In this document: in pieces, positions 9,530 to 62,426 of the stretch | Numbering within the stretch: the first letter of the stretch is position 1 | How the letters are laid out: each line of letters begins with the position of its first letter | Virus record (IMG/VR): IMGVR_UViG_3300044825_002279 | Location: 345-64,344 of that record | Origin: a virus | Lineage: Duplodnaviria; Caudoviricetes | DNA: 64,000 nt | Reading direction: 5' to 3' (one strand) | Notes under the pieces: model-generated | What the model saw: only the letters and a program-made list of their open reading frames with translations | Told to the model about the DNA's origin: nothing | Database searches by the model: none | Position numbers and translations under genes: made by a program

Positions 9530-9927
9530 GCCCGGAACTCGATCCGGCCATGGGCACCGGCCCGGCCCCGTCGCCGGGTCACTGCGCCCACACGGACCTG
9601 GTGAACCGCACCATGCTGGCGCTCTCGGCCCGTGGCGTCATGTGCTGGCGGAATCCAACCGGCCGGACCCGCACCGCCTCCGGCAGCGTGTTCGGCTTCG
9701 GCCTGGTCGGCTCGGGCGACATCCTGGGCGTCATCCCGCCCAACGGCCGCGCGCTCGCCGTCGAGGTCAAAACCGGCCGCGGCCGCCAGACGCCAGCCCA
9801 GATCCGATTCCAGACGGCGTTCTCGAAACGCGGCGGCCTCTACGTGGTCGCCCGCTGCCCCGGCGATGCCATTCTGGCGATCGAGCACGCAATGGGTAGT
9901 GCCGCCGCCGTGGGTTGGCACGCATGA
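9526..9927 (+). CDS. VRR-NUC-like PD-(D/E)xK nuclease
   Basis: GSGDILG...AVEVKTGRGRQTPAQ..F motif. Confidence 0.8.
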   Translation: MSPELDPAMGTGPAPSPGHCAHTDLVNRTMLALSARGVMCWRNPTGRTRTASGSVFGFGLVGSGDILGVIPPNGRALAVEVKTGRGRQTPAQIRFQTAFSKRGGLYVVARCPGDAILAIEHAMGSAAAVGWHA

Positions 9928-15953: not shown

Positions 15954-16064
15954 CGCGGCACCCCGGCGCGGTACGGTTCTGGACTTCGGGGCCGGTCAGT
16001 AATCGGCTGATTTCTGACCCCGCCGGGCTATCGGGGCTCAGGACCCGCAACAGCCCCGAGCCCC

Positions 16065-17444
16065 ATGTCGCCCGCCCAGCAGAACCCAACGACATGGCCG
16101 GCCGACAAGGTCGAGCGGCGGCCGCTCTCCAGTCTGATCCCCTACGCCCGGAACGCCCGCACCCACAGCGAGGCACAGGTGGCACAAATAGCCGCCAGCA
16201 TGCGCGAGTGGGGCTGGACCAACCCGGTGCTGGTCGACGAGCATGGCGGGGTTATCGCCGGGCACGGCCGGATTCTGGCGGCTCGCCAGCTGGGCATCAC
16301 CGAGGTCCCGGTCATGGTCGCCCGAGGCTGGTCCGAGGGGCAAAAGCGCGCCTACGTCCTGGCGGATAACAAGCTGGCCCTGAACGCCGGCTGGGACGAG
16401 GATCTGCTCAAGGTCGAACTCGCCGACCTGAGCGAACTCGGGATGGACCTCGAACTCATCGGCTTCTCCGGCGACGAGCTGGCCGCGCTCATGGCCGAGA
16501 CGACCGAGGGCCTGACAGACCCCGACGCCGTTCCCGATGTGCCGACCGAGCCCGTGAGCGTCCTGGGCGACGTGTGGGTGCTCGGGCGCCACCGGCTGGC
16601 GTGCGGCGACAGTACGACGGTGGAGGCGGTCGACAAGGCGCTGAACGGCGTCAAGCCGCACCTGATGGTGACCGACCCGCCGTATGGGGTGAAGTACGAC
16701 CCGAACTGGCGCAACGAGGCGGACAGGGCCAACGGCAAAGCCTACCGCGCGAGCGCCGTAGGCAACGTGAGCAACGACGACCGCGCCGACTGGTCGGAGG
16801 CGTGGGCTCTGTTCCCCGGCGACGTGGCCTATGTGTGGCACGCGCCCGGCGGCAACAGCGTAGTCGTCGGCGAGAGCCTCAAGACTGCGGGCTTTGAACT
16901 GCGGATGCAGATCATCTGGGCGAAGTCTCGCCTTGTGATCGGTCGCGGCCATTACCATTGCCAGCACGAGCCTTGCTGGTACGCGGTCAAGAAAGGCGGC
17001 ACCGGCCATTGGTCTGGGAGCCGACAGCAGACAACGCTGTGGTCGATTGAGCACCGCAAATCCGAGACCGGCCACGGCACCCAGAAGCCGGTCGAGTGCA
17101 TGATGCGCCCGATCGACAACAACAGCAGCTTCGGCCAGGCGGTCTACGAGCCGTTCTCGGGCTCGGGCACGACCATCATCGCCGCCGAGATGACCGGCCG
17201 CTGCTGCCACGCCATCGAGCTTGACCCGGCCTATGTCGACGTTGCCGTGCGCCGCTGGCAGGAGTTCTGCGGCAAGGTCGCAACCCATGCCGACACCGGC
17301 CTCACCTTCGCCGAGATGGCATCAGATCGAGGTGTGGTACTGCCCGCTGGATCGGTGGCTGGTGGCCCTCACGGACGGGTGGACCCTGCCGTGGGTAGCG
17401 AGCCCGATGCTGGGGCATCACGGTCAGTACTCAGTGCTGCTTGA
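16065..17444 (+). CDS. ParB-N domain fused to an amino (N6A/N4C) DNA methyltransferase
   Basis: PYARNARTHS...IAGHGR; TDPPY; HGTQKPV; EPFSGSGTT. Confidence 0.9.
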   Translation: MSPAQQNPTTWPADKVERRPLSSLIPYARNARTHSEAQVAQIAASMREWGWTNPVLVDEHGGVIAGHGRILAARQLGITEVPVMVARGWSEGQKRAYVLADNKLALNAGWDEDLLKVELADLSELGMDLELIGFSGDELAALMAETTEGLTDPDAVPDVPTEPVSVLGDVWVLGRHRLACGDSTTVEAVDKALNGVKPHLMVTDPPYGVKYDPNWRNEADRANGKAYRASAVGNVSNDDRADWSEAWALFPGDVAYVWHAPGGNSVVVGESLKTAGFELRMQIIWAKSRLVIGRGHYHCQHEPCWYAVKKGGTGHWSGSRQQTTLWSIEHRKSETGHGTQKPVECMMRPIDNNSSFGQAVYEPFSGSGTTIIAAEMTGRCCHAIELDPAYVDVAVRRWQEFCGKVATHADTGLTFAEMASDRGVVLPAGSVAGGPHGRVDPAVGSEPDAGASRSVLSAA

Positions 17445-17893: not shown

Positions 17894-17896
17894 GCC

Positions 17897-19525
17897 GTGC
17901 CCGCCGCCACCGCCCCCCGCCAGATCGAGATCCCGCCGCTCCGCCCGGCCTGCCCGCACCTGTTCGGCCCGGACGGCGAGATCGACCGCACCCTGCTGCG
18001 GGCCGAGCGCGAGCGCCGGCTGCGGGTCTACCAACTGGGCGCCGCCGAGCCACGATTCGCCGCCCGCTGCATCGTCCAGTGCCGCGCCGACCCGCTCTGG
18101 TTCTTCGACAACTTCGCCTCGACGTTCGATCCGCGGATCAAGCTCACGGTGCCGATGATCCTGTGGCCCAAGCAGCGGGACTACGTGACCTGGGTCCTGG
18201 AGCGAATCGCCGAGGCGCAGGACTTCGTCACCGAGAAGAGCCGCGACGTGGGCGTGACCTACATGCACGTCGGGATCGCGGTCTGGTGCTGGCGATTCGA
18301 CGACGGCTTCAAGACCACGTTCTGCGCCAACAAGCTCGACCTCGTGGACGTCAGGGGCAACCCGGACAGCATCTTCGAGAAGATCCGGGCGCTGATCCGC
18401 GGCCTGCCCAAGTGGCTGCTGCCCGAGGGCTGGAACCGGGCCAAGCACGACCGCGAGGCCCTGATCCTCAACCCCCAGAACGGCAACGTGATCTCCGGCG
18501 AGGGCGGCGACAACGCTGGTCGCGGCGGCAGGTCTAGCTTGTACGTGGTCGACGAGGCAGCCCACGTTGAGCGGGCCGACCGGGTCAATGCCGCGACCTC
18601 GGCCAATGCCCGCTCGCGGGGCTGGACCTCCTCGGTGAACGGCAACGGCAACCTGTTCTACCGCCTGGCGCACGGCGGCGACGTCGGGGTGTTCCGGTTC
18701 CACTGGCGGGACGACCCCCGCAAAAACGACGCCTGGGCGGCCAAGAAGCGGCGCGACCTGACCCCCGTCGTGTTCGCCCAGGAGTACGATCTCGACTATG
18801 GGGCCTCGATCGCCGGGCTGGTGATCCCCATGCCGTGGGTCGACGCGGCGCGCGAGCTCTACCGCCGGCTCGGCGACCAGATCGCGACGTTCCGCGCAGC
18901 CAAGGGTGTCGCCGGTGTCGACGTCGGCGGCGGCAAGGCCGAATCCGTGGTGGTGGTCAAGCACGGGCCGGTGCTCGGCATGCCGCATGCCCGGGTCGAC
19001 CAGGACGGCGTCAACATGGCCTACTGGGCGCTCGACATCGCCAAGGCCGAGAACGCGGGGCTGCTCAACTACGACGCGCCCGGCATCGGCTACCACATCG
19101 GGGCCATCCTGCAGCGCGCCGAGGGCTCGGACGTCCGGGTCCGGGGTGTCAACACCGGCGAGCCGCCGACCGACGTGGTCTGGCCCGACGAGCGGACCAG
19201 CCGTGACAAGTTCGCGAACCTCAAGGCCGAGCTGTGGTGGCGGGCCCGCGAGGCGTTCAACCGCTCATGGCTGCATCTTCGGCATTTGGACGGCGATCCC
19301 GAGGGTATCGAGTACCCCGCCAACGAGGTGATCCTGATGGCCGACGATACCGAGCTCGCCCGGCAGCTCAGCACCCCGCGGTACTTCCGGACGGAGCGCG
19401 GCAAGATCATGATCGAGACCAAGGACCAGCTCCGCTCGCGCGGGATTGCCAGCCCCGATCGGGCCGACGCCGCGGTCCTGGCGTTCCACGACGGCACCGG
19501 CGTCCTGTTCTACATCGGGGCCTGA
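17897..19525 (+). CDS. terL: Terminase large subunit
   Basis: EKSRDVGVT Walker A, GRGGR, VVDEAAH, GVDVG, SPDRADA. Confidence 0.9.
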   Translation: MPAATAPRQIEIPPLRPACPHLFGPDGEIDRTLLRAERERRLRVYQLGAAEPRFAARCIVQCRADPLWFFDNFASTFDPRIKLTVPMILWPKQRDYVTWVLERIAEAQDFVTEKSRDVGVTYMHVGIAVWCWRFDDGFKTTFCANKLDLVDVRGNPDSIFEKIRALIRGLPKWLLPEGWNRAKHDREALILNPQNGNVISGEGGDNAGRGGRSSLYVVDEAAHVERADRVNAATSANARSRGWTSSVNGNGNLFYRLAHGGDVGVFRFHWRDDPRKNDAWAAKKRRDLTPVVFAQEYDLDYGASIAGLVIPMPWVDAARELYRRLGDQIATFRAAKGVAGVDVGGGKAESVVVVKHGPVLGMPHARVDQDGVNMAYWALDIAKAENAGLLNYDAPGIGYHIGAILQRAEGSDVRVRGVNTGEPPTDVVWPDERTSRDKFANLKAELWWRAREAFNRSWLHLRHLDGDPEGIEYPANEVILMADDTELARQLSTPRYFRTERGKIMIETKDQLRSRGIASPDRADAAVLAFHDGTGVLFYIGA

Positions 19526-22753: not shown

Positions 22754-23455
22754 TTGTCCCTCGAGGTCAAGTTTCTCTCGATCGCGGAATCCGGCCTCGC
22801 CCTGAAGTCCGAGGACGGCGAGCCCGTGCGGATCGAGGGCTATGCCTCCACGTTCGGCGGCAAGCCCGACAGCTACGGCGACACCATCGTCAAGGGTGCG
22901 TTCACCAAGACGATCCAGGACTGGGGCAAGCGCAAGTATCGGCTCCCGATGCTGCTCGATCACTACAGCGCGCCCATCGGGCTCTGGACCGAACTGCGTG
23001 AAGACAATCGCGGCCTGTGGGCCAAGGGCGAGCTGACGCCGGGCCACACCCTGGCCTGTGACGTGGCCGCCAGCCTGAAGCACGGGGCCGTCTCGGGCCT
23101 GAGCATCGGCTACCGGCCGATCAAGTATACCATGCTGGACAACGGGCAGCGCCGGCAGCTCGACGAGATCGAGCTCGGCGAGATCTCCGTGGTCGGGCGC
23201 CCCGCCAACGATGCCGCTCGGGTCGAGCGGGTCAAGGCGGCCGAGTGCCAGACCGTGCGGGAACTGGAGCAATGGCTGCGTGAGCGCGGCCTGTCGCACT
23301 GGCAGGCCAAGCTGCTCTGCGCCGGCGGATTCGACGCCCTCAAGCAGGCTCGGGACGAGCGGCAAGAGGGCGCAAACGGCAACGATGACCCTCGGGACGA
23401 GGGGGCGGCGGCCGGTGAGTTCCTGGAGGCCCTGCGGGCGCTCCGGGTGGCTTGA
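22754..23455 (+). CDS. HK97-family prohead protease
   Basis: IEGYASTFG, GLSIGY, EISVV..PAN. Confidence 0.9.
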   Translation: MSLEVKFLSIAESGLALKSEDGEPVRIEGYASTFGGKPDSYGDTIVKGAFTKTIQDWGKRKYRLPMLLDHYSAPIGLWTELREDNRGLWAKGELTPGHTLACDVAASLKHGAVSGLSIGYRPIKYTMLDNGQRRQLDEIELGEISVVGRPANDAARVERVKAAECQTVRELEQWLRERGLSHWQAKLLCAGGFDALKQARDERQEGANGNDDPRDEGAAAGEFLEALRALRVA

Positions 23456-23480
23456 ACCCCTATCTAACGGATTCCGACAG

Positions 23481-24869
23481 ATGACGGACCTGACCGAGGT
23501 CGCCGCAGAGGTCAAGCGCGAGATCGCGCGGATCGGCGACGACACCAAGAAGCTTCACGACACGTTCCAGCGCGACCTCAAGGCCGCCCGCGACCTCGCC
23601 GAGGAAGGCAAGGCCGACGCCGGCGCGGTCAAGGCGCTCCTCGAGAGTGCGACGACCAAGTTCGAGACCCTGGAGGCCAAGCAGCGCGAGAGCGAGGCCC
23701 GGGTGCTCTCCGAGGTCGACAAGGTGGGCGCCGCCCTGCGCCGCGTGCACCAGGGCGACCGCAGCGTCGACCTGCCCAAGGCCACGCACCTCGAGGCCCT
23801 GGAGTTCAAGAAGGCCGCGATGTCGGTCCGGGACGAGGCCAAGGCCCAGTCGTTCCGAACCCTGCAGCTGGGCGACGGCGACGTCGAGCGCTACGCCGAG
23901 TACTGCAAGGCGTTCGAGACCCTGTGCCGCAAGGGCGAAAAGTCCCTCAGCTCCGAGGAATACAAGGCCCTCACGACCGGGTCCGACCCGAACGGCGGCT
24001 ACGTGGTCCCGGCCGCGATGTCGCAGCGGATCATGACGATCGTCTACGAGACCTCGCCGATGGACACCATCGCGACGGTCGAGACCATCGGCACCGACCG
24101 CCTGGAGATCCCGATCGACGAGGGCGAGGGCGCCTGCGGCTGGGTCGGCGAAGAGGAGAGCCGGGCCGAGACCGGCACCGCCACGTTCGGCGTCCAGGTG
24201 ATCCCCGTCCACGAGATCTACGCCAAGCCCCGGGCGACGCAGCGCGTCCTCGAGGACTCGAGCCTGGACCTCGAGGGCTGGCTCGCCCGCAAGAACGGCG
24301 ACAAGATGGCCCGCACGGCCAACACGGCGTTCATCAGCGGGAACGGGGTCAAGAAGGCCCGCGGGCTGATGAGCTACACCAGCTCGGCCTCCGCGGCGTC
24401 GCGCGGCACGCCCATGCACTACGTCTCGGGTGCGGCAGCCCTGCTCACCCCGGACGTGATCAAGAACCTGCCGCTCAAGGCGCTCAAGGAGCCCTACCAC
24501 CCGAACGCCCGGTGGCTCATGAAGCGCGCCGCCCTGGCGGCGATCGCGATCTTCCGCGACGACAGCGGGGCCTCGGCCGGCACCGGCCAGTACCTCTGGA
24601 CCCCCGGCCTGCGGGACAACTCGATCCAGAGCCAGCTTGCCGGCTACCCGATCACCCTGGCCGACGACATGCCGGCCGTGGGCGCCGGTAACTTCCCGGT
24701 GGCGTTCGGCGACTTCCGGCAGGCCTACACGATCGTGCGGCGCCTGGGGATCACCACCCTGCGCGACCCGTACTCGGCCAAGCCCTTCGTGGAGTTCTAC
24801 AGCCGGATGCGGGTCGGGGCCGACGTCACGAATTTCGAGGCGTTCGTCCTGATCAAGTGCTCGACGTAA
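23481..24869 (+). CDS. HK97-fold major capsid protein
   Basis: Coiled-coil delta domain; GGYVVP, AFISGNG, FGDF..AY.IV. Confidence 0.92.
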   Translation: MTDLTEVAAEVKREIARIGDDTKKLHDTFQRDLKAARDLAEEGKADAGAVKALLESATTKFETLEAKQRESEARVLSEVDKVGAALRRVHQGDRSVDLPKATHLEALEFKKAAMSVRDEAKAQSFRTLQLGDGDVERYAEYCKAFETLCRKGEKSLSSEEYKALTTGSDPNGGYVVPAAMSQRIMTIVYETSPMDTIATVETIGTDRLEIPIDEGEGACGWVGEEESRAETGTATFGVQVIPVHEIYAKPRATQRVLEDSSLDLEGWLARKNGDKMARTANTAFISGNGVKKARGLMSYTSSASAASRGTPMHYVSGAAALLTPDVIKNLPLKALKEPYHPNARWLMKRAALAAIAIFRDDSGASAGTGQYLWTPGLRDNSIQSQLAGYPITLADDMPAVGAGNFPVAFGDFRQAYTIVRRLGITTLRDPYSAKPFVEFYSRMRVGADVTNFEAFVLIKCST

Positions 24870-34420: not shown

Positions 34421-34864
34421 ATGAACTTGCGCAATCCGGAAATCCGGCCCGATTTCTTGCGGATCGACCCCGCACCCTACATCGGCCTGCCCTATCGGCG
34501 CGGCGGCCGCGAGCGCCCCGCGGTGGACTGCTGGGGCCTAGTCCGTTTGGTCTATGCCGAGCAGCTCGGGATCGAGCTCGACCCGCACGGCGACACCGTG
34601 GGCGTCCTGGGCCAGATCGCGGCCGAGGCCCGGGCCTGGATTCCGGTCCCGGCATCCGAGCTGCGGACCGCCGACGTGCTGCTGCTGCGCAGGATCGGCA
34701 GACCGTTCCACGTCGGGGTGGTCATAGACCCTGGCCTGCTCCTGCACACAGACGAGGGTCATGACGCAGTCCTGCAGCCCCTCGCCCGTATCGCGGACCG
34801 GTTCCAGGGCTACCGCCATCCAGGGCTTGTCCCTGGGCGCCCTCCCGCTCTACGTCAGCCATAG
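34421..34864 (+). CDS. NlpC/P60 tail assembly protein (gpK-like)
   Basis: YIGLPY..GGR...DCWGLV...HVGV...LLH; start uncertain (34343 or 34421). Confidence 0.8.
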   Translation: MNLRNPEIRPDFLRIDPAPYIGLPYRRGGRERPAVDCWGLVRLVYAEQLGIELDPHGDTVGVLGQIAAEARAWIPVPASELRTADVLLLRRIGRPFHVGVVIDPGLLLHTDEGHDAVLQPLARIADRFQGYRHPGLVPGRPPALRQP

Positions 34865-37800
34865 GCCGCACCCGTTCGACCTGCGGGCGGTCCGGGTGGA
34901 GCTGCCCTACGGGCTCACGATCGCCGAGATCCTGGAGGTCGCCTGCGCCGACCCCGCGCTGCGCCGGACCATGTCGGTCAGGATCGCCGGCCACGACATT
35001 CCGGCCGCCGTCTGGCATCGGGTCAGGCCCAAGCCCGGCGTGCTGATCGAGGCGGTGCCGCTGCCGCTCGGTGGCGACACGCTGCGGACGATCCTGATCA
35101 TCGCCGTCGTGGCTGCTGCGATGGCTGCCGGTGCCTGGATCGCCGGGCCGGCGCTGCTGGGTGCCACCGGGGCCACCTTCACCTTCGCGTCGGCCGGCAT
35201 CGGCGGCGCCCTGACCCTGGGCGGCATGCTGGCCCTCAACGCCCTGATCCCCCCGGCCAAGCCGCAGATCGACCAGCCGACCACGACCAGCCCCACCTAC
35301 GGGATCGAGGGCGCCCAGAACTCGGCGCGGATCAACGCCCCGGTCCCGGTCGTCATGGGCGTGCACAAGGTCGTGCCGTCCCTGGCCGCCCCGTGGACCA
35401 CGCTCCTCGACGACGACGACGAGTACCTCTACGGGCTCCTGTGCTGGAGCGTCGGCCCGGCCTCGGTCTCCTCAATCAAGATCGGCGACACCCCGGTCGA
35501 GAACTTCCAGGGCGTGCAGCTCGAGCACTATCTGGGCGACACCACGACCAGTCCGACCTTCACGCTCTACCCCTCGCAGGTCACGATCACGGCGGTCTCG
35601 GCCCTGCTGCTCAGCGGCCGGCGCCAGGTGCGCCAGACCGACACCGACACCGACTACGCCATCCTCGAGTTCCAGTTCCGCGAGGGCGCGATCAAGCTCT
35701 CCGATTCCACGGGCGACGAGCTCGGCGTCACGATCACCCTGCGCTACCGCTACCGCCTGGTCGGCGCCGGCACCTGGAGCGCCGAGACCGAGACCAACGT
35801 CGCGGGCAAGCAGGCCAGCCCCAAGCGCACCGCGCGCCGGATCGCGTTCCCCAGCCGCGGCCAGTACGAGATCGAGGTCTGGAGGGTCACGGGCGATACC
35901 AGCAGCAGCTCGATCAACGACAAGCTCTGGTGGGAGAACATCAAGTCGGTGAACTACGACCCGCCGGTGCGCAAGTGCCAGGGTCTGGTCCTCACCGCGA
36001 TCAAGATCAAGGCGTCGAACCAGCTCTCGGGCGTGATCCGCGACCTCAACGGCATCGTCACGTCCTACCGCCCGGCGTGGAACGGCTCGGCCTGGATCTA
36101 CGTGCCGACCTCGCAGCCGGCAGCCCTGTTCCGCGGCCTGCTGCAAGGCAACAGCCTCAAGCGGCCCGTGCCCGACGACGAGATCGACCTCGCCCAGCTC
36201 CAGTACTGGGCCACGGTGACGGAGCCGGCTCAGCAGTACTGCAACTTCGTCATCGACCGGGACCTGAGCGTCTGGGAGGCGCTCTCGATCATTGCGGCCA
36301 CCGGCCGGGCCACGCCGACCAGGATCAACGGCAAGTGGTCCGTCGTGATCGACGAGCCCAAGGGCGTCCCGGCCCAGATGTTCACCGCCCGGAACTGCCG
36401 CAACTTCATGGCCCGGCGCATCTTCGCCGACGAGCCCCACGCCCTGCGGGTGCAGTTCGTCGATGCCGGGGCCGGCTACACGACCCAGACCCGCGACGTC
36501 TACTATGACGGCTACGACGCCAGCACCGCGACGGAGTTCGAGGAGGCGGAGTTCCCCGGGGTCACCAACGCGGACCAGCTCTGGCGCATGGCCCGCTGGC
36601 GCATGGCCGAGGGCAGGCTCCGCGCCGAGGCCTACACGTTCGAGACGGACTTCGAGCACCTGATCGCCACCCGCGGCGACCTCATCATGGTGCAGCACTC
36701 GGCGCCGCTCTGGGGACGCTCGGCCGGCCGGATCAGGCGCGTGCTGCTCAATGCCGGCGGGCTCATGGAGGCCCTGGAGCTCGACGAGGCGGTGGTCTTC
36801 GACGGCGCCGGCGACTTCGTGATCCGGATTCGCCTGTCGAACAATGCCCAGATCGTGCTCGATATCACCGAGCCCGTCGGCGAGACCCGGATCGTCTTTG
36901 TCGAGCCTCCGGTCGCCAACAGCTTCGTGATCGCACCGGGCGACCTCTACGTCATCGGCCTGCAGGACGAGGAGGCGGTCAAGCTCCTGATCCGCGGGAT
37001 CGAGCCGATCGGCGACCTCGCGGCCCGGATCACCTGCGTCCCGTACCACCCGGCGGTCTACACGGCCCACCTGGGCACCGTGCCGGATTGGGACCCCAAC
37101 ATCACGGCGGTCCCGGGCCAGGAGGCGCCGATCATCCGGGGCGTCACGTCCGGGGATGCCGCCGGCGTGCGAAACGCCGACGGCTCGCTGACCATGCGCG
37201 CGCTGGTCCTGCTGTGGGACGACGGCACCCGGCCCCTGGCGACCCTGTCCGGGGTCGACGTCGCGTGGAAGCGGCTCGACGACGAGGGGCCGTTCAACAT
37301 CATCCAGGCCCCGCCGGAGGCCACCACGGTGGCTATCGTCGGTGTGCCGGTCGACACCACGCTGCGGATCAACGCGCGCTACCGCTTCTCGACCGGGCGC
37401 CTGGGCCGGTGGGGCTCGGAGGTCCAACCCTACATCGCACCGCCCACCATCCCGCCGGCCGACGTCAAGGGCCTGATCATCGACGGGCTCTACCTGCGCT
37501 GGATTCACGCCTCGGGCGGCGATCACAAGGGGTTCCTGATCAAGTGGAGCCCGGTCGGCGGGCAGCCCTGGGAAGAGTGCGAGGACGTCACCGACCAGGC
37601 CGTCACCGCGACCGAGTTCCCGACGGCCGCAATCCCGGACGGCGCGCGCCAGATCCTGATCAAGGCGGTGACGATCCACGGGGTCCAGAGCGTCAGCCCG
37701 GCCAGGGCCACGGCCGAGGCCGGGTTCGCCTTCAGCCGCATCGACGTTGGCAACGACAGCCTGCGGACCCGCGGCTTCCCCGGCACGGTCGTCAATGCGG

Positions 37801-38486
37801 TCAAGATCGGCGGCGAGCTGCGCGGGCTCGACAACTCGCTGTTCCTGGACGGCGGCGGCCGCTGGCTGGTCCCGGAAGGTGCCGACTGGCTGGAGCCCAG
37901 CTGGGCCGAGGTCACGTACATCTGCAACGTCTACACGCCGACCACGCTGCTGCGCACCGACCGGATCTACCTGGACTACGACATCCAGGGCGATTTCAAG
38001 CTGGCCTACCGGTGGGGCACGGCCGACCTCGCGTTCGCGGCTTTCGTCGATCCGGTCCCCGACGGCCTGCTGACCGGCAACTTCAACGATCCGGTGGGCA
38101 GCTCGGTCGACGAGGAGGTGCTGCTGGTCTGGCGCGCATGGCGCCAGGGCATCCCGGCCTTGCCGAATCAGCCCCTGCAACTGCGCTGCATCATCGCCGG
38201 CGGCGGCACCGTCCAGCCCCTGATTCGCGAGCTTCGGCTGCGGTTCGACGCCGAGGAAATCCAGGAGACCTTCAGCAATCTCCCGATCGGCCCGGCCAGC
38301 ACCTTCGTACCCAAGCAGCGGACGTACCGCAAGGTCGCCTACGTTCTCGGCAGTATCACCGCCCCCTCCACGGCTACGACCTTCGTCGTCGACGGCAAGG
38401 CGCCGAATGCTATCCGCGTTCGGCTCACCAATGCCGCCGGCGCCGACGTCGCGGGGTTCGCTGACGTCCGCATTGGAGGCGGTTGA
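34761..38486 (+). CDS. Tail tip/host specificity protein (gpI+gpJ-like)
   Basis: ~1240 aa; VPVVMG, phage tail-tip core, FN3-like C-terminal region; TTG 34827 is a possible start. Confidence 0.85.
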   Translation: MTQSCSPSPVSRTGSRATAIQGLSLGALPLYVSHRPHPFDLRAVRVELPYGLTIAEILEVACADPALRRTMSVRIAGHDIPAAVWHRVRPKPGVLIEAVPLPLGGDTLRTILIIAVVAAAMAAGAWIAGPALLGATGATFTFASAGIGGALTLGGMLALNALIPPAKPQIDQPTTTSPTYGIEGAQNSARINAPVPVVMGVHKVVPSLAAPWTTLLDDDDEYLYGLLCWSVGPASVSSIKIGDTPVENFQGVQLEHYLGDTTTSPTFTLYPSQVTITAVSALLLSGRRQVRQTDTDTDYAILEFQFREGAIKLSDSTGDELGVTITLRYRYRLVGAGTWSAETETNVAGKQASPKRTARRIAFPSRGQYEIEVWRVTGDTSSSSINDKLWWENIKSVNYDPPVRKCQGLVLTAIKIKASNQLSGVIRDLNGIVTSYRPAWNGSAWIYVPTSQPAALFRGLLQGNSLKRPVPDDEIDLAQLQYWATVTEPAQQYCNFVIDRDLSVWEALSIIAATGRATPTRINGKWSVVIDEPKGVPAQMFTARNCRNFMARRIFADEPHALRVQFVDAGAGYTTQTRDVYYDGYDASTATEFEEAEFPGVTNADQLWRMARWRMAEGRLRAEAYTFETDFEHLIATRGDLIMVQHSAPLWGRSAGRIRRVLLNAGGLMEALELDEAVVFDGAGDFVIRIRLSNNAQIVLDITEPVGETRIVFVEPPVANSFVIAPGDLYVIGLQDEEAVKLLIRGIEPIGDLAARITCVPYHPAVYTAHLGTVPDWDPNITAVPGQEAPIIRGVTSGDAAGVRNADGSLTMRALVLLWDDGTRPLATLSGVDVAWKRLDDEGPFNIIQAPPEATTVAIVGVPVDTTLRINARYRFSTGRLGRWGSEVQPYIAPPTIPPADVKGLIIDGLYLRWIHASGGDHKGFLIKWSPVGGQPWEECEDVTDQAVTATEFPTAAIPDGARQILIKAVTIHGVQSVSPARATAEAGFAFSRIDVGNDSLRTRGFPGTVVNAVKIGGELRGLDNSLFLDGGGRWLVPEGADWLEPSWAEVTYICNVYTPTTLLRTDRIYLDYDIQGDFKLAYRWGTADLAFAAFVDPVPDGLLTGNFNDPVGSSVDEEVLLVWRAWRQGIPALPNQPLQLRCIIAGGGTVQPLIRELRLRFDAEEIQETFSNLPIGPASTFVPKQRTYRKVAYVLGSITAPSTATTFVVDGKAPNAIRVRLTNAAGADVAGFADVRIGGG

Positions 38487-48775: not shown

Positions 48776-49137
48776 CCACCGAAGGCGCACTGGCCGAGAA
48801 GGTCCGCCGGCTCGAGCGCGACGTCGAGGATCTCGAGCAGCGGGTCGAGGCCGCGCACCGCCGGGCAGAGGCGGCAGGCGGGGCCGCGGAGACCGCTATC
48901 GCCGAGGTCGGCCGGGTCAATGTGAACCTGCAGCACACCACGCGGATTGCCCAGGGCGTGGACGCCGCGCTCAAGACCCGGATGCAGGAGGAGGAGGTGC
49001 AGCGCCGGTCGCAAAGCGCGATCTGGCGCATGGTGCAGATCGCCGCCAGCTTGGGGCTGTTCGCATGGTCGCTGTTCACCGGCAAGCTCTCGACCACCCT
49101 GGAATATCTGCGGCAGCTCGCGGCGGGGCCAAAGTGA
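48772..49137 (+). CDS. Coiled-coil + C-terminal TM protein (holin/XhlA-like architecture)
   Basis: GTGA overlap; VRRLERDVEDLEQRV heptads, then a TM. Confidence 0.55.
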   Translation: MTTEGALAEKVRRLERDVEDLEQRVEAAHRRAEAAGGAAETAIAEVGRVNVNLQHTTRIAQGVDAALKTRMQEEEVQRRSQSAIWRMVQIAASLGLFAWSLFTGKLSTTLEYLRQLAAGPK

Positions 49138-49634: not shown

Positions 49635-49743
49635 TCGGCTGACTCCCGCACGCCCCGGCCGCATCCACGGCACACCACAGCCGCGGACAGAGCGCCCATG
49701 ACGTTCCCGACCTCGCGCCGGCAGCCGGGCGCGGTCCGCTAAG

Positions 49744-54349: not shown

Positions 54350-55225
54350 ATGGCGATCTTCGACCGGGCCCAGCAGGCCTTCAACGATGCCGTCGACGCC
54401 GAGATAGGGGACCGGATCGCCTCGGCCGTGACCCCGATCGAGGAAGTCGCGGCCGGGGCTGCCCGGGATGCGACCGAGGCGTTGGCCGTGGCGCGGGGAG
54501 TGCCCGCCGGCCCCCAGGGCGAGCCTGGGGAGCCAGGGCCTATTGGCCCCCAGGGCGAGCCGGGACCGGCCGGCGCCCAGGGCCCGGAGGGGCCGCAGGG
54601 CCCGGAGGGGCCGCAGGGCCTGCGTGGGCCGGCCGGTCCCGATGGCGCGCCAGGACCGCAGGGCGAGCGCGGCCCGACCGGCCTGCCCGGTCGCGATGGC
54701 CTGGACGGGCTGCCCGGCGCTCGCGGCGAGGTCGGGCCGGCCGGGCCGACGGGCGAGCGTGGGCCGGAGGGTCCGCAGGGCCTCATCGGGTCGCAAGGGG
54801 TTCCTGGCCCCGCGGGCCCGGCCGGTCCCCAAGGCTCCGCAGGCCCGGCTGGCACCGTCGGCCCCACTGGCGCCGACGGTGCGCCAGCCACGGTCACGCT
54901 CGAGTTCGGACCGGTGACGGCGTTCCCCTACGTGCCCAACGCCGCCGACGCGGTGGGCGGGCAGATCCTGCTGGCGCCGGCGGCCACAGCGCAGGTCATT
55001 CTCCCGGCCGGGCTCCACTCGGCTGGTGCGCCTGCCGGGTTCCGGAGCTGGCGCAACGTCGTGTTCCTGATCGAGCCCAACGTCAGCGTGACGTTCATCG
55101 CCGGCGTGGGTGCGACCCTGCGGGCGACTGCGGACCTGGCGCCGATCTCGAGCTACGTCGCGACCGGACCGCTGCGCGCGGTGGTCATGCAGACCAACGG
55201 CACCGACTGGCGGCTGCTGCGGTGA
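54350..55225 (+). CDS. Collagen-like fibre protein
   Basis: About 42 uninterrupted G-X-Y triplets and a C-terminal beta domain. Confidence 0.85.
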
Positions 55226-56439
55226 CCCCGCTGGCACGCCAGCTTGTCGGCCGCGACCCGGACATGGCGCGGCTGCTGGTCAATCCGTACAACCGGTGGA
55301 GCGCGCATCATCGCCCGCTCGGCCGCGGCATCCGCTACGGCATCCCGCCCGCGACGCTGCAGGCGAGGGTCGCCGATCCGATCTACGTGCCGGGGATCGA
55401 GGGGTCGCGCGGCCGGCTGGCGAACGCCACCATGTTCCGCCTGGGCCTCAACAAGCCCGGCGTGAAGCACGCCTATTGGGTCGAGCCCGGGCACCCGATG
55501 CGGGAGGTCGAGTTCCAGGCGCTGGCGCCAGGGGGCGGGCAGGGCAACGGCGACGGCCTGCCGGTGACGCTGCGGCTGCCGCCCCAGAACGCGACCACCT
55601 TCTACCCGCCCTATGCCGGCAGTCCGACCAACCCGGCCGCCGACGATCGCGACAACGAGATCCTGTTCTTCCCGCGCGGCGGCCTGCAGATCGACATGGC
55701 CGACTGCTTCCCGCAGTTCGTCTACGACAGCAAGCGGCCCGGGACGGCCGGCGGCAAGGCGTCGGCTCGATCGCGCCTGAGCTTCGGCCTCGGTGGCCGC
55801 GACGTCCGCGACCGGTGGGATGATCCCGGCAGCTGGGGCCCGAGCGCCATGGGCTGGCGGCTCCTGGGCGGGGTGCTGCGGCGCGCCGAGTGCGACGTGT
55901 TCTCGGACACGCCGCGGCCGGTCAACCACCTCCTGATCGCGACCGCCACCCGGCACAGCAACGCCGGGGCGCCGGCCAGTGCCCATATCCTGTCGCGCTT
56001 CGTCTCCTACCCGGGCTGGGGCACCGATACCCCGCTCCTGGCCGGCGAGAACCTGGGCGACCTGCCCTACGGCTCGATCCTCACGATCCGCGACATCGAT
56101 CTGGCCCTGCGCGAGCTCCTGGGCCTTAGCCCGTTCGGCAAGGTGCTGTTCGACACCATAGCGGGTTACGGCCTCTGCCTCGCCGACGGCCAGGGCCAGA
56201 CGGTCGACGGTGGCGGCGTTGTGCAGATGCGGGTCGATTGGGGTTGGGTGCCGGGCTCACCCGAGCATGCGCAGGTCGATGCCGACCTGATCAAGCTGCT
56301 GCCGCTGCTCTACCCCGTGTTCAACCCGCGCGGCCATGTCGGCGGCGACGCGCCCGAGATCTGGACCGACGGCCTGCCCTACGTCGGAGGTGGCGGCCCA
56401 AGGCTCGCCGGCAGCATCAACACGGCCTGGGATGCCTGA
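55222..56439 (+). CDS. Stand-alone copy of the unknown domain duplicated in 40475-45259
   Basis: [12 protein letters not shown]...GIPP, TRHS, GD.PYG, PVFNPR, GGGGPR...SINTAWD. Confidence 0.75.
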
Positions 56440-56448
56440 CCGGCCGAG

Positions 56449-57240
56449 CTAGGCGAAGATGTCCAGGTGGTCGATCGGCAGGTGCCCCAGCACGTTGCTG
56501 AGCTCGATCGCGTCGTTCTCGACCCGGATCGTGAGCGCGCCTCGTGTCGGGTCGTAGACGACGTCGAGCCCGCCACCATCGCCGTCGGCGTCGGTCAGGG
56601 CACCATCATCGTTGGTGTCGAGCCAGTCCTTGGCCGTGGCGTCATCGGCCATCAGGGTGCCGTCCTCGTAGTAGATCGAGAGGCTCAGCCGCTCGCCCGG
56701 CGTGTAGTCGGCCCACAGGACCGTCATGCCGTCGGCGCCGACCCGGAACGCCATGTCGACCTGATCGGCGCCCTCGTTGCCGTAGATCACGGTCGGGCCC
56801 TGCATGTCCTCGAGGGTGAAGCTGGGGTGCAGGCTGCCGTCGCTGGCCTGCGATTGCCACCCGAAGTCGTCCCACTCGCCGGTCGAGATCACGTCGTCGC
56901 CGGCGCCGGCCTCGGTCACGCCATGGCAGAGCACGATCGTGTCGTTGCCATCCCCGCCATAGACCAGGGAGAAGTTCTGCCCGGCCACGATCAGGTCGTC
57001 GCCGCGCCCGCCGTCGATGAAGGCATAGCCGTTGCCGGCGCTGAGGCTGTCCTGGCCGTCCTTGCCCCAGAGCTCGTCGTAGCCGGCGCCTCCGTCGATC
57101 GCGTCAGCACCCAGCCCGCCATAAAGCCGGTCATTGCCGCCAAACCCGAAGATCACGTCGTCCCCGGCCTTGCCCGCGATGAGCTCTCCGGCCTCGGTGC
57201 CGAGCAGGGTGTCGGCCCTGGCGGTGCCCTGGATGGCCAT
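56449..57240 (-). CDS. RTX/hemolysin-type calcium-binding repeat protein (moron)
   Basis: Multiple GGxGxDxL nonapeptides; acidic; GGAG RBS; opposite strand next to attP. Confidence 0.85.
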   Translation of the reverse strand: MAIQGTARADTLLGTEAGELIAGKAGDDVIFGFGGNDRLYGGLGADAIDGGAGYDELWGKDGQDSLSAGNGYAFIDGGRGDDLIVAGQNFSLVYGGDGNDTIVLCHGVTEAGAGDDVISTGEWDDFGWQSQASDGSLHPSFTLEDMQGPTVIYGNEGADQVDMAFRVGADGMTVLWADYTPGERLSLSIYYEDGTLMADDATAKDWLDTNDDGALTDADGDGGGLDVVYDPTRGALTIRVENDAIELSNVLGHLPIDHLDIFA

Positions 57241-57464
57241 GTGTGCGCTCCCCGTTGGTTAGGCGGGCATCATGCGCCGGATGCGGGGCCGAGGCTTGTG
57301 GGAAAACGCACACGGCGCGGGCACAGTTCCGCGGCTGACTGGACGGGCTGCTGTGCCGCCGGACGCTCCGCTGCCGGCGTCGCTCTGTTCGCTTGATGCG
57401 TTAGACGCGCTGCCGGAAAGTCAGGGATCGCCTGACTTCCGGGCTTCCCGCCGCGATCTCTGCC

Positions 57465-57509
57465 CGGTTTTCAAGACCGCTCCGTTAAACCAAGCTCCGG
57501 CACCCATCC
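57465..57509 (-). pseudogene. 5' half of tRNA-Ser(UGA): acceptor 5' strand, D arm and anticodon arm only
   Basis: GGATGGG TG CCGGAGCTTGGTTTAACGG A GCGGT CTTGAAA ACCG; no T arm and no CCCATCC 3' acceptor strand downstream. Confidence 0.75.
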
Positions 57510-57523
57510 TGGCCTGAAACCCG

Positions 57524-57552
57524 CACATACGCTCGGTTCGGTCAGCTTTCAA
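57524..57552 (-). promoter_or_regulatory. Promoter reading into the tRNA 5' half
   Basis: TTGAAA-17 bp-TATGTG, 14 bp upstream of tRNA G1. Confidence 0.55.
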
Positions 57553-57868
57553 CCTGTGCCGAACCGCTGCCGCCTGTGCCGTGTTCTGTGCCGGTGCGTT
57601 CCGGGGGCAGCGGCCCGGGATAGAGCTTCTCCCATCCCGCCGGCGGGGGCTTGGAATGCTGCAGGTAGCAGCCCTGGTGGCCGCCGGCGCTGAGCATGTT
57701 GGCCATTAGCCCCAGCTCGTCGGCGGCGTCGGCGCGGCCCTGGTCGCGCAGCTCGTCCGAGCGCCGGCGCAGGAACAGGATGGCGTCGGCCCGCTCGAGG
57801 CATCGGTCCGCGCTCAGACCGTCCCATTCGGCCGGCCAGTGGACGATCAGGTCGGGTGCCCTACCCAT
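57542..57868 (-). CDS. Hypothetical protein
   Basis: GAGGGGG RBS; 3' end overlaps the att arm repeats. Confidence 0.5.
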   Translation of the reverse strand: MGRAPDLIVHWPAEWDGLSADRCLERADAILFLRRRSDELRDQGRADAADELGLMANMLSAGGHQGCYLQHSKPPPAGWEKLYPGPLPPERTGTEHGTGGSGSAQVES

Positions 57869-57913
57869 TCTCGTCCCCCTCGCGATCGGTTGCGCGCTGC
57901 TCATCTTCGGAGA

Positions 57914-58816
57914 TCACGGCTTATCCGCCTTAGCGGCCGCCTCGCGGGCCTTGGCGGCGGCCATGGCATCCTTCCACTCCTGGGTGTCGCGGTGCCAGCT
58001 GGGCTGGCCGGTAGCCCGGTCGTAGGTGGACATGGCGCCCAGGATCTCGAGCGCCCAGACCGAGAGCCGATCCAGAGGCAGGTCGGGCAGCTTGCCCTCG
58101 CCGTCCTGCACGATAACGCCGCGCTGCATGAAAGAATCCATGATCACCTGGTCGAGCGACGGCCTGGGCCAGGGCTGCCTGATCCATTCGGGCTTGGGCT
58201 CAGCGTTGCGCGATTGGAAGGTGACCTCGGAGTCCCCCGCGTCGAAGTCCTCGCCCGGTCCCCGTGGATACAGGTGGGGCTGCCAGTCCATGTCCCCCGC
58301 AGCCAGGGGCGGTGGGTGCTCCCGCTGGATCTCCGCCCTCGCCGGGATCGAGCACTTGATCGGGTGGTTGATCGGGCCCGGATCGGGGTCGACCCGCCCA
58401 TGCCCTTCCAGGATGGGCATCGGCCAGCCGGGCACCGGCTCGATCCAGGTTCTCGCGTCCGGCATCGTGAACCTGCTGCCGTAGGGCGCCATCCCCTTGA
58501 TCTTGAGGGTCTTCAGCGGCCGGAGCGAGGGGCGCAGCTCGAGCCAGGCCGCCTCGATGTCGATCCACTCCGGGCACGGGTCGGGGTAGAGCTCCACCTT
58601 GAGCTCGCGCGGCAGCTCGCAGGTGAGGTAGGCCTCGTCCGGCTTTTTCGGCCGGCCGACGAGCTCGATCGGGATCCGGACGCCGAAGTAGGCGATCTTG
58701 TCGACCAGCTTGCGCCCGGCTTCGTTGTCGGCGAAGCGGGTCAGCCACCGGCCCACGTCGTCGAGGTCGATCGAGAGGATCTCGATCAGGCCGGACGGGT
58801 GCGGAGGTTCGGTCAT
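57914..58816 (-). CDS. Hypothetical protein downstream of int
   Basis: 300 aa Pro/Trp-rich; GGAG RBS; genome-typical codon usage. Confidence 0.7.
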   Translation of the reverse strand: MTEPPHPSGLIEILSIDLDDVGRWLTRFADNEAGRKLVDKIAYFGVRIPIELVGRPKKPDEAYLTCELPRELKVELYPDPCPEWIDIEAAWLELRPSLRPLKTLKIKGMAPYGSRFTMPDARTWIEPVPGWPMPILEGHGRVDPDPGPINHPIKCSIPARAEIQREHPPPLAAGDMDWQPHLYPRGPGEDFDAGDSEVTFQSRNAEPKPEWIRQPWPRPSLDQVIMDSFMQRGVIVQDGEGKLPDLPLDRLSVWALEILGAMSTYDRATGQPSWHRDTQEWKDAMAAAKAREAAAKADKP

Positions 58817-58832
58817 GTGGTGGTCGCTCCGG

Positions 58833-59837
58833 TTAGGCCCCGGCCGCCAGGCGCTTGGCCGTGACGGCTTCCTCGGGCGTGAGGAAGTCGAGGTAGATCT
58901 CGGTGGTGGCGATGGTGCTGTGGCCCAGGATCTGCTGCAGGGCGTAGATCGAGCCGCCGTCGCGCAGGTAGCGGACCGCGAACAGGTGGCGCAGATCGTG
59001 GGTGCGGAACGGGACGCCGGCGGCCTTCCTGAGCTGGTGCAGGTAGCTGGCGAGGTTGTGGTAGCGGTCGGCACCGCCGTCGCGGGTCGGGTGCCAGAAC
59101 ACGAACGGGCAGCCCAGCCGCCGCGGTGTGCCGTGAAGTGTGCCGAGTGCCGCTGCCGTGAGCGGCACCGCCCGGGCCCGGCCGGTCTTGCTGCGCTCGA
59201 CCTGGAGCGCTGCCCGGGCCAGGTCGACCTGGCGCCAGGTGAGGCCGGCCGCCTCCTCGAGGCGCAGGCCCGTCTGCTCGAGCAGGCGGACCAGCGGCCG
59301 CAGGCGGGCGGGCAGGGCGGCCTGCAGCTGCTCGACCTGGTCCTCGGTCGGCAGCACGATCGGGTCGCGGCGCTCGCGGATCAGGCCGCGGTCATAGGCG
59401 CGGGCCGGGTTGGCCGGGAGCCAGCCCCAGCCCACGGCCGCCTGGAGCACGGCCGAGACGGCGGTGAGGTCGCGGCGGCGGGTGGCGTTGGTGATGCCGG
59501 GGCGGCCCGCGATGCGCGCCAGCACCCTGCGGTCGATCTCGTCGAGGTGGAGCGGGGCCAGGACGTCGCCGGCGACCTTGAGGCTCGACATGTAGCGGCG
59601 CAGCGTGGCCGGGCGCAGCGCCTGGGGTGCGACCTCGGCATGCCAACGCAGGGCGGCCTCCGCCCACAGGCGGCGCTCGTCGCCCCAGGCGGCGCGGCCG
59701 AGCCGATCGAGCTCTAGCCTGGCCCGCTCCTGGGCGAGCTTCCGAACACCCGTGCGTAGGCTTCGGCGATGCTCGCGACCGGCGATGGTGACCCGGAGCC
59801 ACCAGACCTGGCCGCGCCGGTAGAGATGGTCCGGCAC
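58833..59837 (-). CDS. int: Tyrosine integrase
   Basis: TGLRLEE, SKTGRAR, HDLRH, LGHS, TEIY catalytic residues; N-terminal arm-binding segment. Confidence 0.93.
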   Translation of the reverse strand: MPDHLYRRGQVWWLRVTIAGREHRRSLRTGVRKLAQERARLELDRLGRAAWGDERRLWAEAALRWHAEVAPQALRPATLRRYMSSLKVAGDVLAPLHLDEIDRRVLARIAGRPGITNATRRRDLTAVSAVLQAAVGWGWLPANPARAYDRGLIRERRDPIVLPTEDQVEQLQAALPARLRPLVRLLEQTGLRLEEAAGLTWRQVDLARAALQVERSKTGRARAVPLTAAALGTLHGTPRRLGCPFVFWHPTRDGGADRYHNLASYLHQLRKAAGVPFRTHDLRHLFAVRYLRDGGSIYALQQILGHSTIATTEIYLDFLTPEEAVTAKRLAAGA

Positions 59838-60016
59838 CGCGCTGCCCTCCCTTCCGCATCCTCGATCCACCGTAGCACCGCCTCGCGGCGGAATGTCCAG
59901 ACCCGGCCGAGCCGGGCCGCACTCGGGATCTCGCCACGGGCCGCCATCTGCTGCACCCCGCGCTCGCCCAGCCCGGTGAGTGCGACGACGTCGGCGACGC
60001 GGATGCGGGTCACCAT
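59714..60016 (-). CDS. xis: Excisionase-like HTH protein
   Basis: VADVVALTGL...GEIP.A.RLGRVWTF...V.RW; overlaps the int 5' end. Confidence 0.75.
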   Translation of the reverse strand: MVTRIRVADVVALTGLGERGVQQMAARGEIPSAARLGRVWTFRREAVLRWIEDAEGRAARCRTISTGAARSGGSGSPSPVASIAEAYARVFGSSPRSGPG

Positions 60017-60462
60017 CGCGGTGCGGCGTCCCACTCGGCGCGGTCCTGGTCGATCGGGTCGGCTACAAGCGCCCGATCTTCGGCGGCGGGGCGCAGGAAG
60101 AGAAACTCAGGGCCACCGGCTAGTGCGCATAGGGCAATCGCGGGCAGCGTGCGTGACGCCGGCCCCGCGCGCTGCTCGGGCTCCTGCACCGGCTCCAGCT
60201 CGATCGTCCAGTCCTGCGGCAGGGGCACCAGGTCGGCGTCGACCGCAGGGACGGCGGCGAGCACGGCCTGGTGCAGCCGATCGTTCAGCGCGACCTCGGC
60301 CTGCTCAAAGAGCCGGGTGCGCTCGGTGGCCGGGTGCACGGGCTCGGCATCCGCGCCGATCCAGCACAGCACGATCTCGATCGCCGTGGCGCCGATCGCG
60401 GCTTGCTGCGCGGGCGACAGCTTCGCCCACTCGGCCGAGCCGGAGAGGAAGGGGGCGGTCAT
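60010..60462 (-). CDS. Hypothetical protein
   Basis: ATGA coupling; 150 aa. Confidence 0.6.
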   Translation of the reverse strand: MTAPFLSGSAEWAKLSPAQQAAIGATAIEIVLCWIGADAEPVHPATERTRLFEQAEVALNDRLHQAVLAAVPAVDADLVPLPQDWTIELEPVQEPEQRAGPASRTLPAIALCALAGGPEFLFLRPAAEDRALVADPIDQDRAEWDAAPRW

Positions 60463-62296: not shown

Positions 62297-62426
62297 CCTT
62301 TTTAGCCTTCCGTTCCTCGCGTTCGATCTTCTTCGCCACCTTCGCAGCGGCCTCGCCTTTGCCCTTGGGGCGGTAGGCCAGAACGTGCGTCGTGAAGGCG
62401 TCGAGGGCTTTCAAAATCTCGGTCAT
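62283..62426 (-). CDS. 47-aa basic ORF downstream of the transposase
   Basis: ATGA-coupled; VLAYRPK followed by a Lys-rich tail. Confidence 0.5.
   Translation of the reverse strand: MTEILKALDAFTTHVLAYRPKGKGEAAAKVAKKIEREERKAKKDVGE

Follow-up and report, generated by a model that had tools for sequence, protein, structure and literature searches.

A highly probable phage attP that carries the 5' half of tRNA-Ser(UGA)

A 64,000-nt stretch of DNA (hereafter the window) from the IMG/VR virus record IMGVR_UViG_3300044825_002279 was characterized. The record is linear, 64,344 nt long and 85% complete as estimated by CheckV, and the window is best explained as a temperate siphovirus-like phage. On its minus strand, downstream of a gene for a tyrosine integrase (int), lie the first 45 nt of tRNA-Ser(UGA). 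An earlier note on this DNA had read the place as a reversed attachment site, by which the phage replaces the 5' part of its target tRNA gene through a crossover in the anticodon loop. We conclude with high confidence that the site is a genuine attP of this 5'-half type, which would supply the 5' part of tRNA-Ser(UGA). Both junctions predicted for such a site were present in an integrated relative, and all of the recombinant tRNAs assembled in silico were valid.

Read along the minus strand, the locus consists of int, three arm repeats, a short upstream region, the 45 nt of tRNA sequence and a P' arm with further repeats (Table 1). The 45 nt (minus strand, 57509..57465, GGATGGGTGCCGGAGCTTGGTTTAACGGAGCGGTCTTGAAAACCG) are laid out as GGATGGG, TG, a D arm and then A-GCGGT-CTTGAAA-ACCG, with the anticodon loop CTTGAAA at 57475..57469. 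A G directly follows ACCG where the closing C would be needed, so that the tRNA pattern stops at the last pair of the anticodon stem, just as the earlier note had described. The same 45 nt gave a partial nhmmer match to a tRNA-Ser(UGA) profile. The claim that no full tRNA is present also held: ARAGORN called 0 tRNA genes in the whole 64-kb window, Rfam searched at E ≤ 10 returned no tRNA match in 57200..57700, and the T-loop motif GGTTCGAATCC had 0 matches in the window at ≤1 mismatch, the 5' half having neither a T arm nor a 3' acceptor strand. The 45-nt part is the predicted identity block between attP and attB.

The 13-nt core, GGTCTTGAAAACC, occurs once in the window at ≤2 mismatches. Its 3-bp inverted repeat GGT/ACC would provide the core-type Int sites, and the 7-nt loop between them the overlap for strand exchange. 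The repeat CGGCACAG (CTGTGCCG on the plus strand) is present in seven exact copies in the window, four of which fall within 57351..57593; with a shuffle mean of 5.0 per 64 kb, these 243 bp would, by our own arithmetic, be expected to hold ∼0.02 copies. With one inverted copy that matches at 7 of 8 positions, the four account for the three repeats on the int side and the two on the other side that had been reported, and this cluster represents putative Int arm-type sites on both sides of the core. CGGCACA repeats were found at the place of the P-arm repeats in two relatives (L041 and L074), and on the P' side of a third, L094, two direct copies and an inverted one stand about as far from the core as in the window.

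The integrase gene contains the sole PF00589 match in the record. Its open frame extends to 60062 and the start codon is uncertain; R203, H291, R294, H317 and Y326 of the product are invariant in an alignment of 11 relatives (A1). The distance from the int stop to the tRNA start is 1.32 kb, as against the ∼1.3 kb given before, and attP lies outside and downstream of int on the same strand. An attP downstream of int is the lambda-like layout.

A degenerate pattern for the host-type 5' half matched 15 viral stretches, two of which were on one contig. This IMG/VR contig (G200; 54,046 nt) is a provirus that carries the loci L142 and L145. At L142, an integrase gene whose product is 88% identical in amino acid sequence to that of the window is followed ∼1.1 kb later, on the same strand, by a complete tRNA-Ser(UGA). 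At L145, 47.7 kb upstream of L142 and on the same strand, a 5' half ends in ...AAAACCG and is followed by P' arm-like DNA. BLAST aligned window positions 60013..58837 (int) with L142 at 89% nucleotide identity and 57605..57465 (P arm through core) with L142 at 80%; 57509..57350 (tRNA start through P' arm) aligned with L145 at 90%. In a three-way alignment (A2), the window attP resembled the attR of G200 on the left side of the core and its attL on the right side, the switch of partner falling after the core block. The 58 columns that hold the P-arm repeats contained 2 differences between the window and G200 attR, with divergent flanks on either side. The tail genes between the two G200 junctions were collinear with those of the window at 64–74% nucleotide identity, and int was intact beside attR. 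The two 5' halves of G200 differed by 1 nt, and the sequence that precedes the displaced half was unrelated to that before the rebuilt gene. This is the arrangement expected of a Campbell product of a window-like attP, with int, P arm and full tRNA as attR and the displaced 5' half and P' arm as attL, and we regard it as the decisive case. The attL and attR junctions that the earlier note had proposed to look for were, in short, found in a relative with an 88% identical integrase but not for this exact phage.

We propose that Int would bind the arm repeats together with the inverted GGT/ACC of the anticodon stem, and that strands would be exchanged in the host tRNA-Ser(UGA) gene, inside its 7-nt anticodon loop, at an exact position that we infer. 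The int-proximal junction would join the phage 5' half to the host 3' half, giving a complete tRNA-Ser(UGA), and the host promoter and host 5' half would be left as a dead fragment at the far junction. The rebuilt gene would depend on phage-side transcription and would carry the phage-specific D arm. Excision would reverse integration.

The fit of the site to a host gene was assessed with 11 complete, host-type tRNA-Ser(UGA) genes from the best loci of a sampled family, the Acetobacteraceae; a twelfth locus, in which the extraction was shifted, was left out. The window was identical to 10 of the 11 over the acceptor strand with U8/G9 (9/9) and over position 26 with the anticodon stem-loop through ACCG (17/17). 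The exception, L110, has C for G at the first position of the anticodon stem (CCGGT, as compared with GCGGT in the other ten). All 11 genes conform to the consensus GGATGGG-TG-GCC-GAG(C/T)GGT(T/C)TAA-GGC-A-(G/C)CGGT-CTTGAAA-ACCG...CCCATCC-G-CCA, which includes the 3' acceptor strand CCCATCC that had been predicted for the host; a 3' fragment at locus L062, in a Roseomonas metagenome-assembled genome (MAG), also ends in CCCATCC-GCCA. BLAST matches were obtained in 125 of 151 sampled family genomes, essentially only over the tRNA part of the query, at 79–93% identity. A single match was present in 107 of the 125, matches not being equivalent to copy numbers. The likeness of the 5' half to a tRNA is above chance, because it is identical to 10 of the 11 genes in these parts and the BLAST matches are confined to the tRNA part. 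When the window P arm and loop were joined in silico to the 3' parts of the 11 host genes, ARAGORN predicted a tRNA-Ser(tga) beginning at the phage G1 in 11 out of 11 cases, and attP alone, as a control, gave no tRNA.

The D stem of the window is CCG/CGG as compared with GCC/GGC in the host, so that both outer pairs are flipped with pairing kept, and the D loop is 2 nt longer than the host type and retains the GG dinucleotide. The comparison of D arms that had been suggested previously shows the phage version to be phage-specific, without a counterpart in the 151 family genomes. This bears on a reading in which the window holds an integrated prophage that ends at 57465, the 5' half, ORF120 (an open reading frame between int and attP) and int through to 64000 being host chromosome and the tRNA having been split without repair. 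IMG/VR records can include host flanks, and the right-hand 4 kb consists of an IS1595-family transposase and open reading frames (ORFs) without phage families. The phage D-arm 22-mer, however, had 0 matches at ≤3 mismatches in the 151 genomes and is therefore unlike a host copy. The pairing of int with the half is seen again in viral contigs and in lysogens, the record has no second core or 3' half, and it contains no other integrase that could serve the supposed prophage. We consider this explanation extremely improbable.

Hardly any credence can be given, either, to a decayed phage tRNA-Ser gene that lost its 3' half and is unrelated to integration. Phages often carry tRNA genes, and the failure of ARAGORN and Rfam to find a tRNA would fit a remnant. 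However, the break coincides exactly with the edge of the anticodon stem, where the att identity blocks of relatives end, and the position of the piece after int is preserved across integrases that are only ∼40% identical. The flanking arm repeats are also kept in relatives, the D stem still pairs through its two flipped pairs, and in the integrated relative G200 the piece is found as a junction. The earlier note would have taken relatives with a complete tRNA at this place as a sign of decay. Such relatives were found, but they also have a displaced 5' fragment elsewhere and are therefore lysogens rather than phages with an intact tRNA gene of their own.

The P-O-P' core was bridged by contigs of four public runs, from three samples and two studies: X1 and X2 over 56293..59500, X3 over 55777..57744, and X4, from wastewater in the other study, over 57402..57660, with no differences. 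X1–X3 may be the source of the record. Because contigs from two studies bridge it, the P-O-P' junction is not an assembly chimera; these data are contigs rather than reads, and contigs drop rare variants and are silent on the existence of integrated forms. A further possibility is that the window is a stretch of a tandem prophage array, in which one 5'-type element contributes int and the 5' half, and a second element, inserted in the rebuilt tRNA, the DNA below 57465 (an RTX gene and the tail genes). Such arrays occur in relatives (two displaced halves in a row in G155, signs of a neighbour in G001 and G200), int, 5' half and P' arm in an array would look exactly like an attP, and a linear, 85% complete record leaves room for it. 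Nevertheless, the record has one integrase and one copy of the core, the depth of contig X1 is similar on both sides of the core (32 versus 27), and in G200 the window-like P' and P arms bound a single element with collinear tail genes, which argues that both arms belong to one phage type. We judge an array to be very unlikely, and even in an array the P arm of a 5'-type element is what the 5' half would represent.

Ten viral contigs carried integrases 39–45% identical to that of the window, and no complete tRNA was found in their fetched loci. In six of the ten, the 13-nt core lies ∼110 nt after the int stop on the int strand. In L002, L004, L005 and L006 the variable arm, T arm and acceptor-CCA come after the core, as in the usual 3'-part attP, whereas in L008 and L011 the acceptor strand and D arm precede the core and unrelated DNA follows it, as in the window. 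This comparison indicates that the same core is usable with either half of the tRNA within one integrase family.

Species-representative genomes were scanned with the integrase alignment, which gave 80 loci, mostly in Alphaproteobacteria. Classification used ARAGORN and nhmmer profiles of tRNA-Ser(UGA) and tRNA-Ser(GCU) over ≤2 kb after int; two loci scored as 'full' by nhmmer (L002 and L036) were reset to 3' part, since ARAGORN finds no tRNA there. Out of 91 loci (the window, ten viral and 80 genome loci), 37 were classifiable, 13 as 5'-type and 24 as 3'-type; in the other 54, a tRNA-Ser piece was absent, the matches were weak ones to other tRNAs only, or the contig ended. The counts of relatives are lower bounds, as the single-integrase search missed the 88% relative (L142) that the pattern scan later found. 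The 5'-type loci comprised three with a co-oriented 5' half only (the window, L008 and L011), two with a co-oriented full tRNA-Ser(UGA) (L041 and L074) and eight with a convergent 5' half of tRNA-Ser(GCU) (L015, L020, L024, L047, L049, L052, L056 and L060). The 3'-type loci had either a co-oriented 3' part (n = 11; L002, L004, L005, L006, L022, L025, L027, L035, L036, L037 and L062) or a convergent full tRNA with its 3' end nearest int (n = 13; 12 GCU and 1 UGA).

A maximum-likelihood tree was built from 36 classified integrases and 3 outgroups, L085 being too short to include. The 5' label changed 5 times on this tree, and well-supported branches force at least three changes. A single origin of the label was recovered in 0 of 200 bootstrap trees, in a bootstrap that had not fully settled. 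The window integrase grouped in a supported trio with two 3'-type integrases. About one-third of the classifiable loci in one alphaproteobacterial integrase family appear to have 5' polarity, with several independent switches, and from these loci 5' polarity, rare in print, seems to be common among the relatives of the window integrase.

Several results weigh against a genuine 5'-type attP. An integrated copy of this exact phage was found in no searched collection. The exact 45-mer had 0 matches in viral contigs and 0 in genome contigs, the P arm had no match in the 151 family genomes, and none of the loose ends listed in matching contigs lay at the core. Patterns for the phage D arm had 0 matches in two scans of metagenome contigs, and exact-pattern searches for the D-arm variant gave no match in the genome, viral and metagenome collections. 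The host, which we infer to be alphaproteobacterial and Acetobacteraceae-like (Roseomonas family), is read from the tRNA sequence only. The sigma-70 scan of the window did not call the putative promoter TTGAAA-17-TATGTG, whose −10 hexamer matches at 3 of 6 positions and lacks the final T. Among the public runs that contain the stretch, 0 are on record as RNA, so that expression of the rebuilt tRNA is a prediction.

Neighbouring elements add to these points. Upstream of the displaced half of G200 there is an ORF (L145, 5921-7480, minus strand; G200 contig 48699-50258) with weak terminase RNaseH-like Pfam hits below the cut-offs; ORFs of this flank gave either weak hits of that kind or no Pfam hit. 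Because of this terminase-like ORF, the displaced half may belong to a neighbouring element in a tandem array rather than being the original host copy. The flank upstream of L145 matches 34 of the 151 family genomes at 64–72% nucleotide identity, not next to their tRNA-Ser, and a second phage-like element or a cluster like that of a gene transfer agent may abut the G200 prophage. In G001, the displaced half (attL) and int with the full tRNA (attR) are on two contigs. The gene before the displaced half presumably encodes CTP synthase. A putative Rha-like ORF follows both the displaced half (L094) and the rebuilt tRNA (L041), the two copies being 82% identical. Because this ORF lies behind both sites, a second related element is probably alongside and the G001 locus is probably a tandem array; the arrangement suggests two related elements, one 5'-type and possibly one 3'-type.

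The two hexamers are present 14 nt upstream of the tRNA start, as the earlier note stated, but their standing as a promoter is weaker than it had supposed: apart from the result in the window itself, the sigma-70 scan called nothing upstream of the 5' halves in the 5'-type relatives L041, L074, L008 and L011. The promoter had also been said to overlap the Int arm sites; in fact 1 nt separates the −35 hexamer from the third arm repeat, so that the two adjoin and do not overlap. A similar motif, TTGAAA-17-TAGTAA, lies 15 nt before the tRNA of L142, although this conservation is not independent, because the two P arms are 80% identical. Several native upstream regions, inspected by eye, contain TTGnnn, 16–18 nt and TAnnnn at ∼10–12 nt before the tRNA, and the geometry of the window motif is therefore plausible. 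RNase P processing is an established part of tRNA maturation. The rebuilt tRNA would be transcribed either from TTGAAA-17-TATGTG or by read-through from int followed by RNase P processing, and read-through is an equally good source. Control of an essential tRNA by the prophage is a matter of speculation.

According to the textbook account, elements carry the 3' part of a tRNA so that the host promoter keeps driving the rebuilt gene. Williams in 2002 is said, in papers that cite that work, to have treated the anticodon-loop sublocation and bacterial exceptions. The usual rule, as given in two published accounts, is that attP contains the tRNA's 3' half (PMC10865867; PMC8371274). The review among them describes att sites with the 5' half for archaeal pTN3-like elements and for rare bacterial cases (PMC8371274), and the Islander method explicitly allows for a 5' fragment upstream of a tRNA gene (PMC4383910). 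The novelty implied by the earlier note was therefore too high: the 5'-half arrangement is in print and, on our counts, common in relatives. The window site is a known but rarely described kind of attP. What adds to its interest is a natural lysogen of a close relative, the frequency and repeated switching of polarity, and the phage-specific D arm.

With a canonical tRNA attP the window site has in common an adjoining tyrosine integrase, arm repeats on both arms, an anticodon stem-loop core, a 7-nt overlap and a rebuilt tRNA. It differs in that its identity block spans tRNA positions 1 to ∼43 and not the 3' part, that the rebuilt gene would lose its native promoter, and that the leftover is a 5' fragment upstream of the element. 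The pTN3-like integrases of Thermococcales are similar in that attB is the 5' half of a tRNA and a full tRNA is rebuilt away from its own promoter (PMC5495485; PMC8371274); a figure legend for pTN3 has the rebuilt full-length tRNA 'separated from its original promoter' (Cossu et al., 2017; PMC5495485). In pTN3, however, attP is described as lying inside the integrase gene, which integration splits, and expression of the tRNA is attributed to the integrase promoter, whereas the window attP is 1.3 kb downstream of an intact int, in a phage of a presumed bacterial host and with an integrase of a different family. In dusA islands, as described by Farrugia et al. (2015; PMC4482086), element sequence likewise replaces the 5' end of the target gene and a putative −35/−10 lies upstream afterwards, but the target is protein-coding, the integrases belong to an unrelated family and the core has no stem-loop. 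In the tRNA-dependent lysogeny of mycobacteriophages, the lysogen is reported to depend on a phage-supplied tRNA sequence (Guerrero-Bustamante and Hatfull, 2024; PMC10865867), as would be the case here. There, the core is given as ∼10 bp, integration does not rebuild a tRNA and an entire tRNA gene is present in the phage (PMC10865867), in contrast to the window, with its 45-nt block that would rebuild the gene and its 0 complete tRNA genes.

The window phage and its relatives suggest that the opposite polarity works in bacteria and is not a curiosity. Programs that map islands or prophages from 3' fragments only will misplace the ends of 5'-type elements. The tRNA-Ser(UGA) of a lysogen would then depend on phage-side transcription and, for the window phage, on a phage-specific D arm, which offers a natural system for studying which parts (a promoter, a correct 5' half) have to come with an element when the front of an RNA gene is exchanged for its own. 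We think it unlikely, but raise the idea, that lysogeny would rewrite what appears to be the single tRNA-Ser(UGA) of the host into a phage-specific variant, transcribed from DNA that abuts the arm sites and perhaps serving the prophage, and that the switching between 3' and 5' polarity reflects selection rather than accident. If this were true, the altered D arm could change how tRNA-targeting nucleases see the tRNA, or could tie tRNA supply to the state of the prophage.

Table 1. Coordinates of features in the window.
Feature	Position	Strand	Basis or remark
tRNA-Ser(UGA) 5' part, first 45 nt: acceptor 5' strand, D arm, anticodon stem-loop to ACCG	57465..57509	−	Sequence reading, tRNA comparison, in-silico recombinants
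Core GGT / CTTGAAA / ACC	57466..57478	−	Single copy; kept in relatives; partner switch in alignment
Putative promoter TTGAAA-17-TATGTG	57524..57552	−	TTGAAA 57552..57547, TATGTG 57529..57524; ends 14 nt before tRNA start
Putative arm-type repeats of P arm, 3 × CGGCACAG, direct	57554..57593 (57593-86, 57581-74, 57561-54)	−	int side
Putative arm-type repeats of P' arm	57319..57358	−	One direct CGGCACAG at 57358..57351 and an inverted 7-of-8 copy at 57326..57319
ORF120 (120 aa), between int and attP	57542..57904	−	GC3 0.83; 3' end overlaps arm repeats
Tyrosine integrase	58833..59870	−	PF00589, E 5.9e-25
Primase/helicase	9900..11981		PHROG match
ParB-methyltransferase	16011..17444	+	PHROG match
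Large terminase	17894..19525		PHROG match
Major head protein	23103..24869		PHROG match
J-like tail protein	34728..38486		PHROG match

Two other candidates near the site were considered. ORF120 matched no Pfam or PHROG family and, in G200, had no protein match beyond the arm-repeat DNA; it may not be a real gene. A hairpin just after the core (57395..57470) was dropped as a feature: its z of −1.43 is not unusual, and it is imperfect in the relative L142/L145.

Displaced 5' fragments were also seen in other lysogens. In G110 and G132 a full tRNA-Ser(UGA) shares its contig with such a fragment, which lies 16.6 kb and 9.5 kb upstream, respectively. G110 has a tblastn match to the window integrase (28% identity) immediately upstream of the tRNA; G132 has no tblastn match to it, and the ORF at that place was judged by eye to encode a tyrosine recombinase. 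In G190 and G187, fragments are located 61 kb and 40.6 kb upstream of int, which is followed by a full tRNA-Ser(UGA), and the integrases are 25–28% identical to that of the window. No second 5' half was found in the assembly of G002 (L074). Among viral contigs, a co-oriented full tRNA-Ser(UGA) follows a more distant tyrosine integrase (26–29% identity) in L140 and L141, and L143 is another lone 5' half of the GGATGGG type. From the arrangements in L140, L141 and L143, at least two integrase families appear to use 5' polarity at tRNA-Ser(UGA).

In the complete chromosome of G155, two 5' halves of tRNA-Ser(GCU), at 1,053,131 and 1,025,829, and a full gene at 967,347 lie on one strand, and the family integrase of L049 adjoins the middle half. 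The native promoter region (TTGACG, a 17-nt spacer and TACAG) is repeated in the P arm that precedes the full gene. The region G155:C1:967347-1053172 (L135, L049 and L134) is a tandem array of two 5'-type elements at tRNA-Ser(GCU). The P arm of the inner element carries the copy of the native tRNA promoter region along with a 5' half; the outer element has GGTGCCA-type arm repeats, as in G110 and G132.

A different arrangement was seen in the Roseomonas MAG. At L102 (G003:C50:5125-8171), a displaced tRNA-Ser(UGA) 5' half ends right after the anticodon loop, and 35 nt beyond it comes a different complete tRNA-Ser(UGA) (GGAGCGG...). The same MAG has, at L062 on another contig, a family integrase with the matching displaced 3' fragment (...CCCATCCGCCA) behind it. 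The element seems to split the host gene and to supply a complete substitute tRNA, which resembles tRNA-dependent lysogeny as reported for mycobacteriophages (PMC10865867).

The G+C content of the window is 70%. PHROG matches mark the window phage as a temperate tailed phage (Table 1); blastn of 56400..60100 at a distant setting gave 0 matches in the phage collection. In the ParB-methyltransferase, a match to DNA methyltransferase PHROGs (phrog_498, E 3.4e-142) is combined with a ParB-like nuclease or partition domain at the N terminus. The tail module ends with an ORF at 54350-55225 (plus strand) that contains collagen triple-helix repeats (PF01391, E 2e-21) and probably encodes a tail fibre. 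Directly adjoining attP on the P' side, an ORF of 263 aa at 56449-57240 (minus strand), opposite in direction to the tail genes, has calcium-binding nonapeptide repeats of the RTX type (PF00353, E 1.4e-16) and no PHROG family; it may be a lysogenic-conversion gene (moron). The IS1595-family transposase gene at 62423-63340 (minus strand; PF12762, E 1.5e-45, with the zinc ribbon PF12760) lies amid leftward early-side phage genes.

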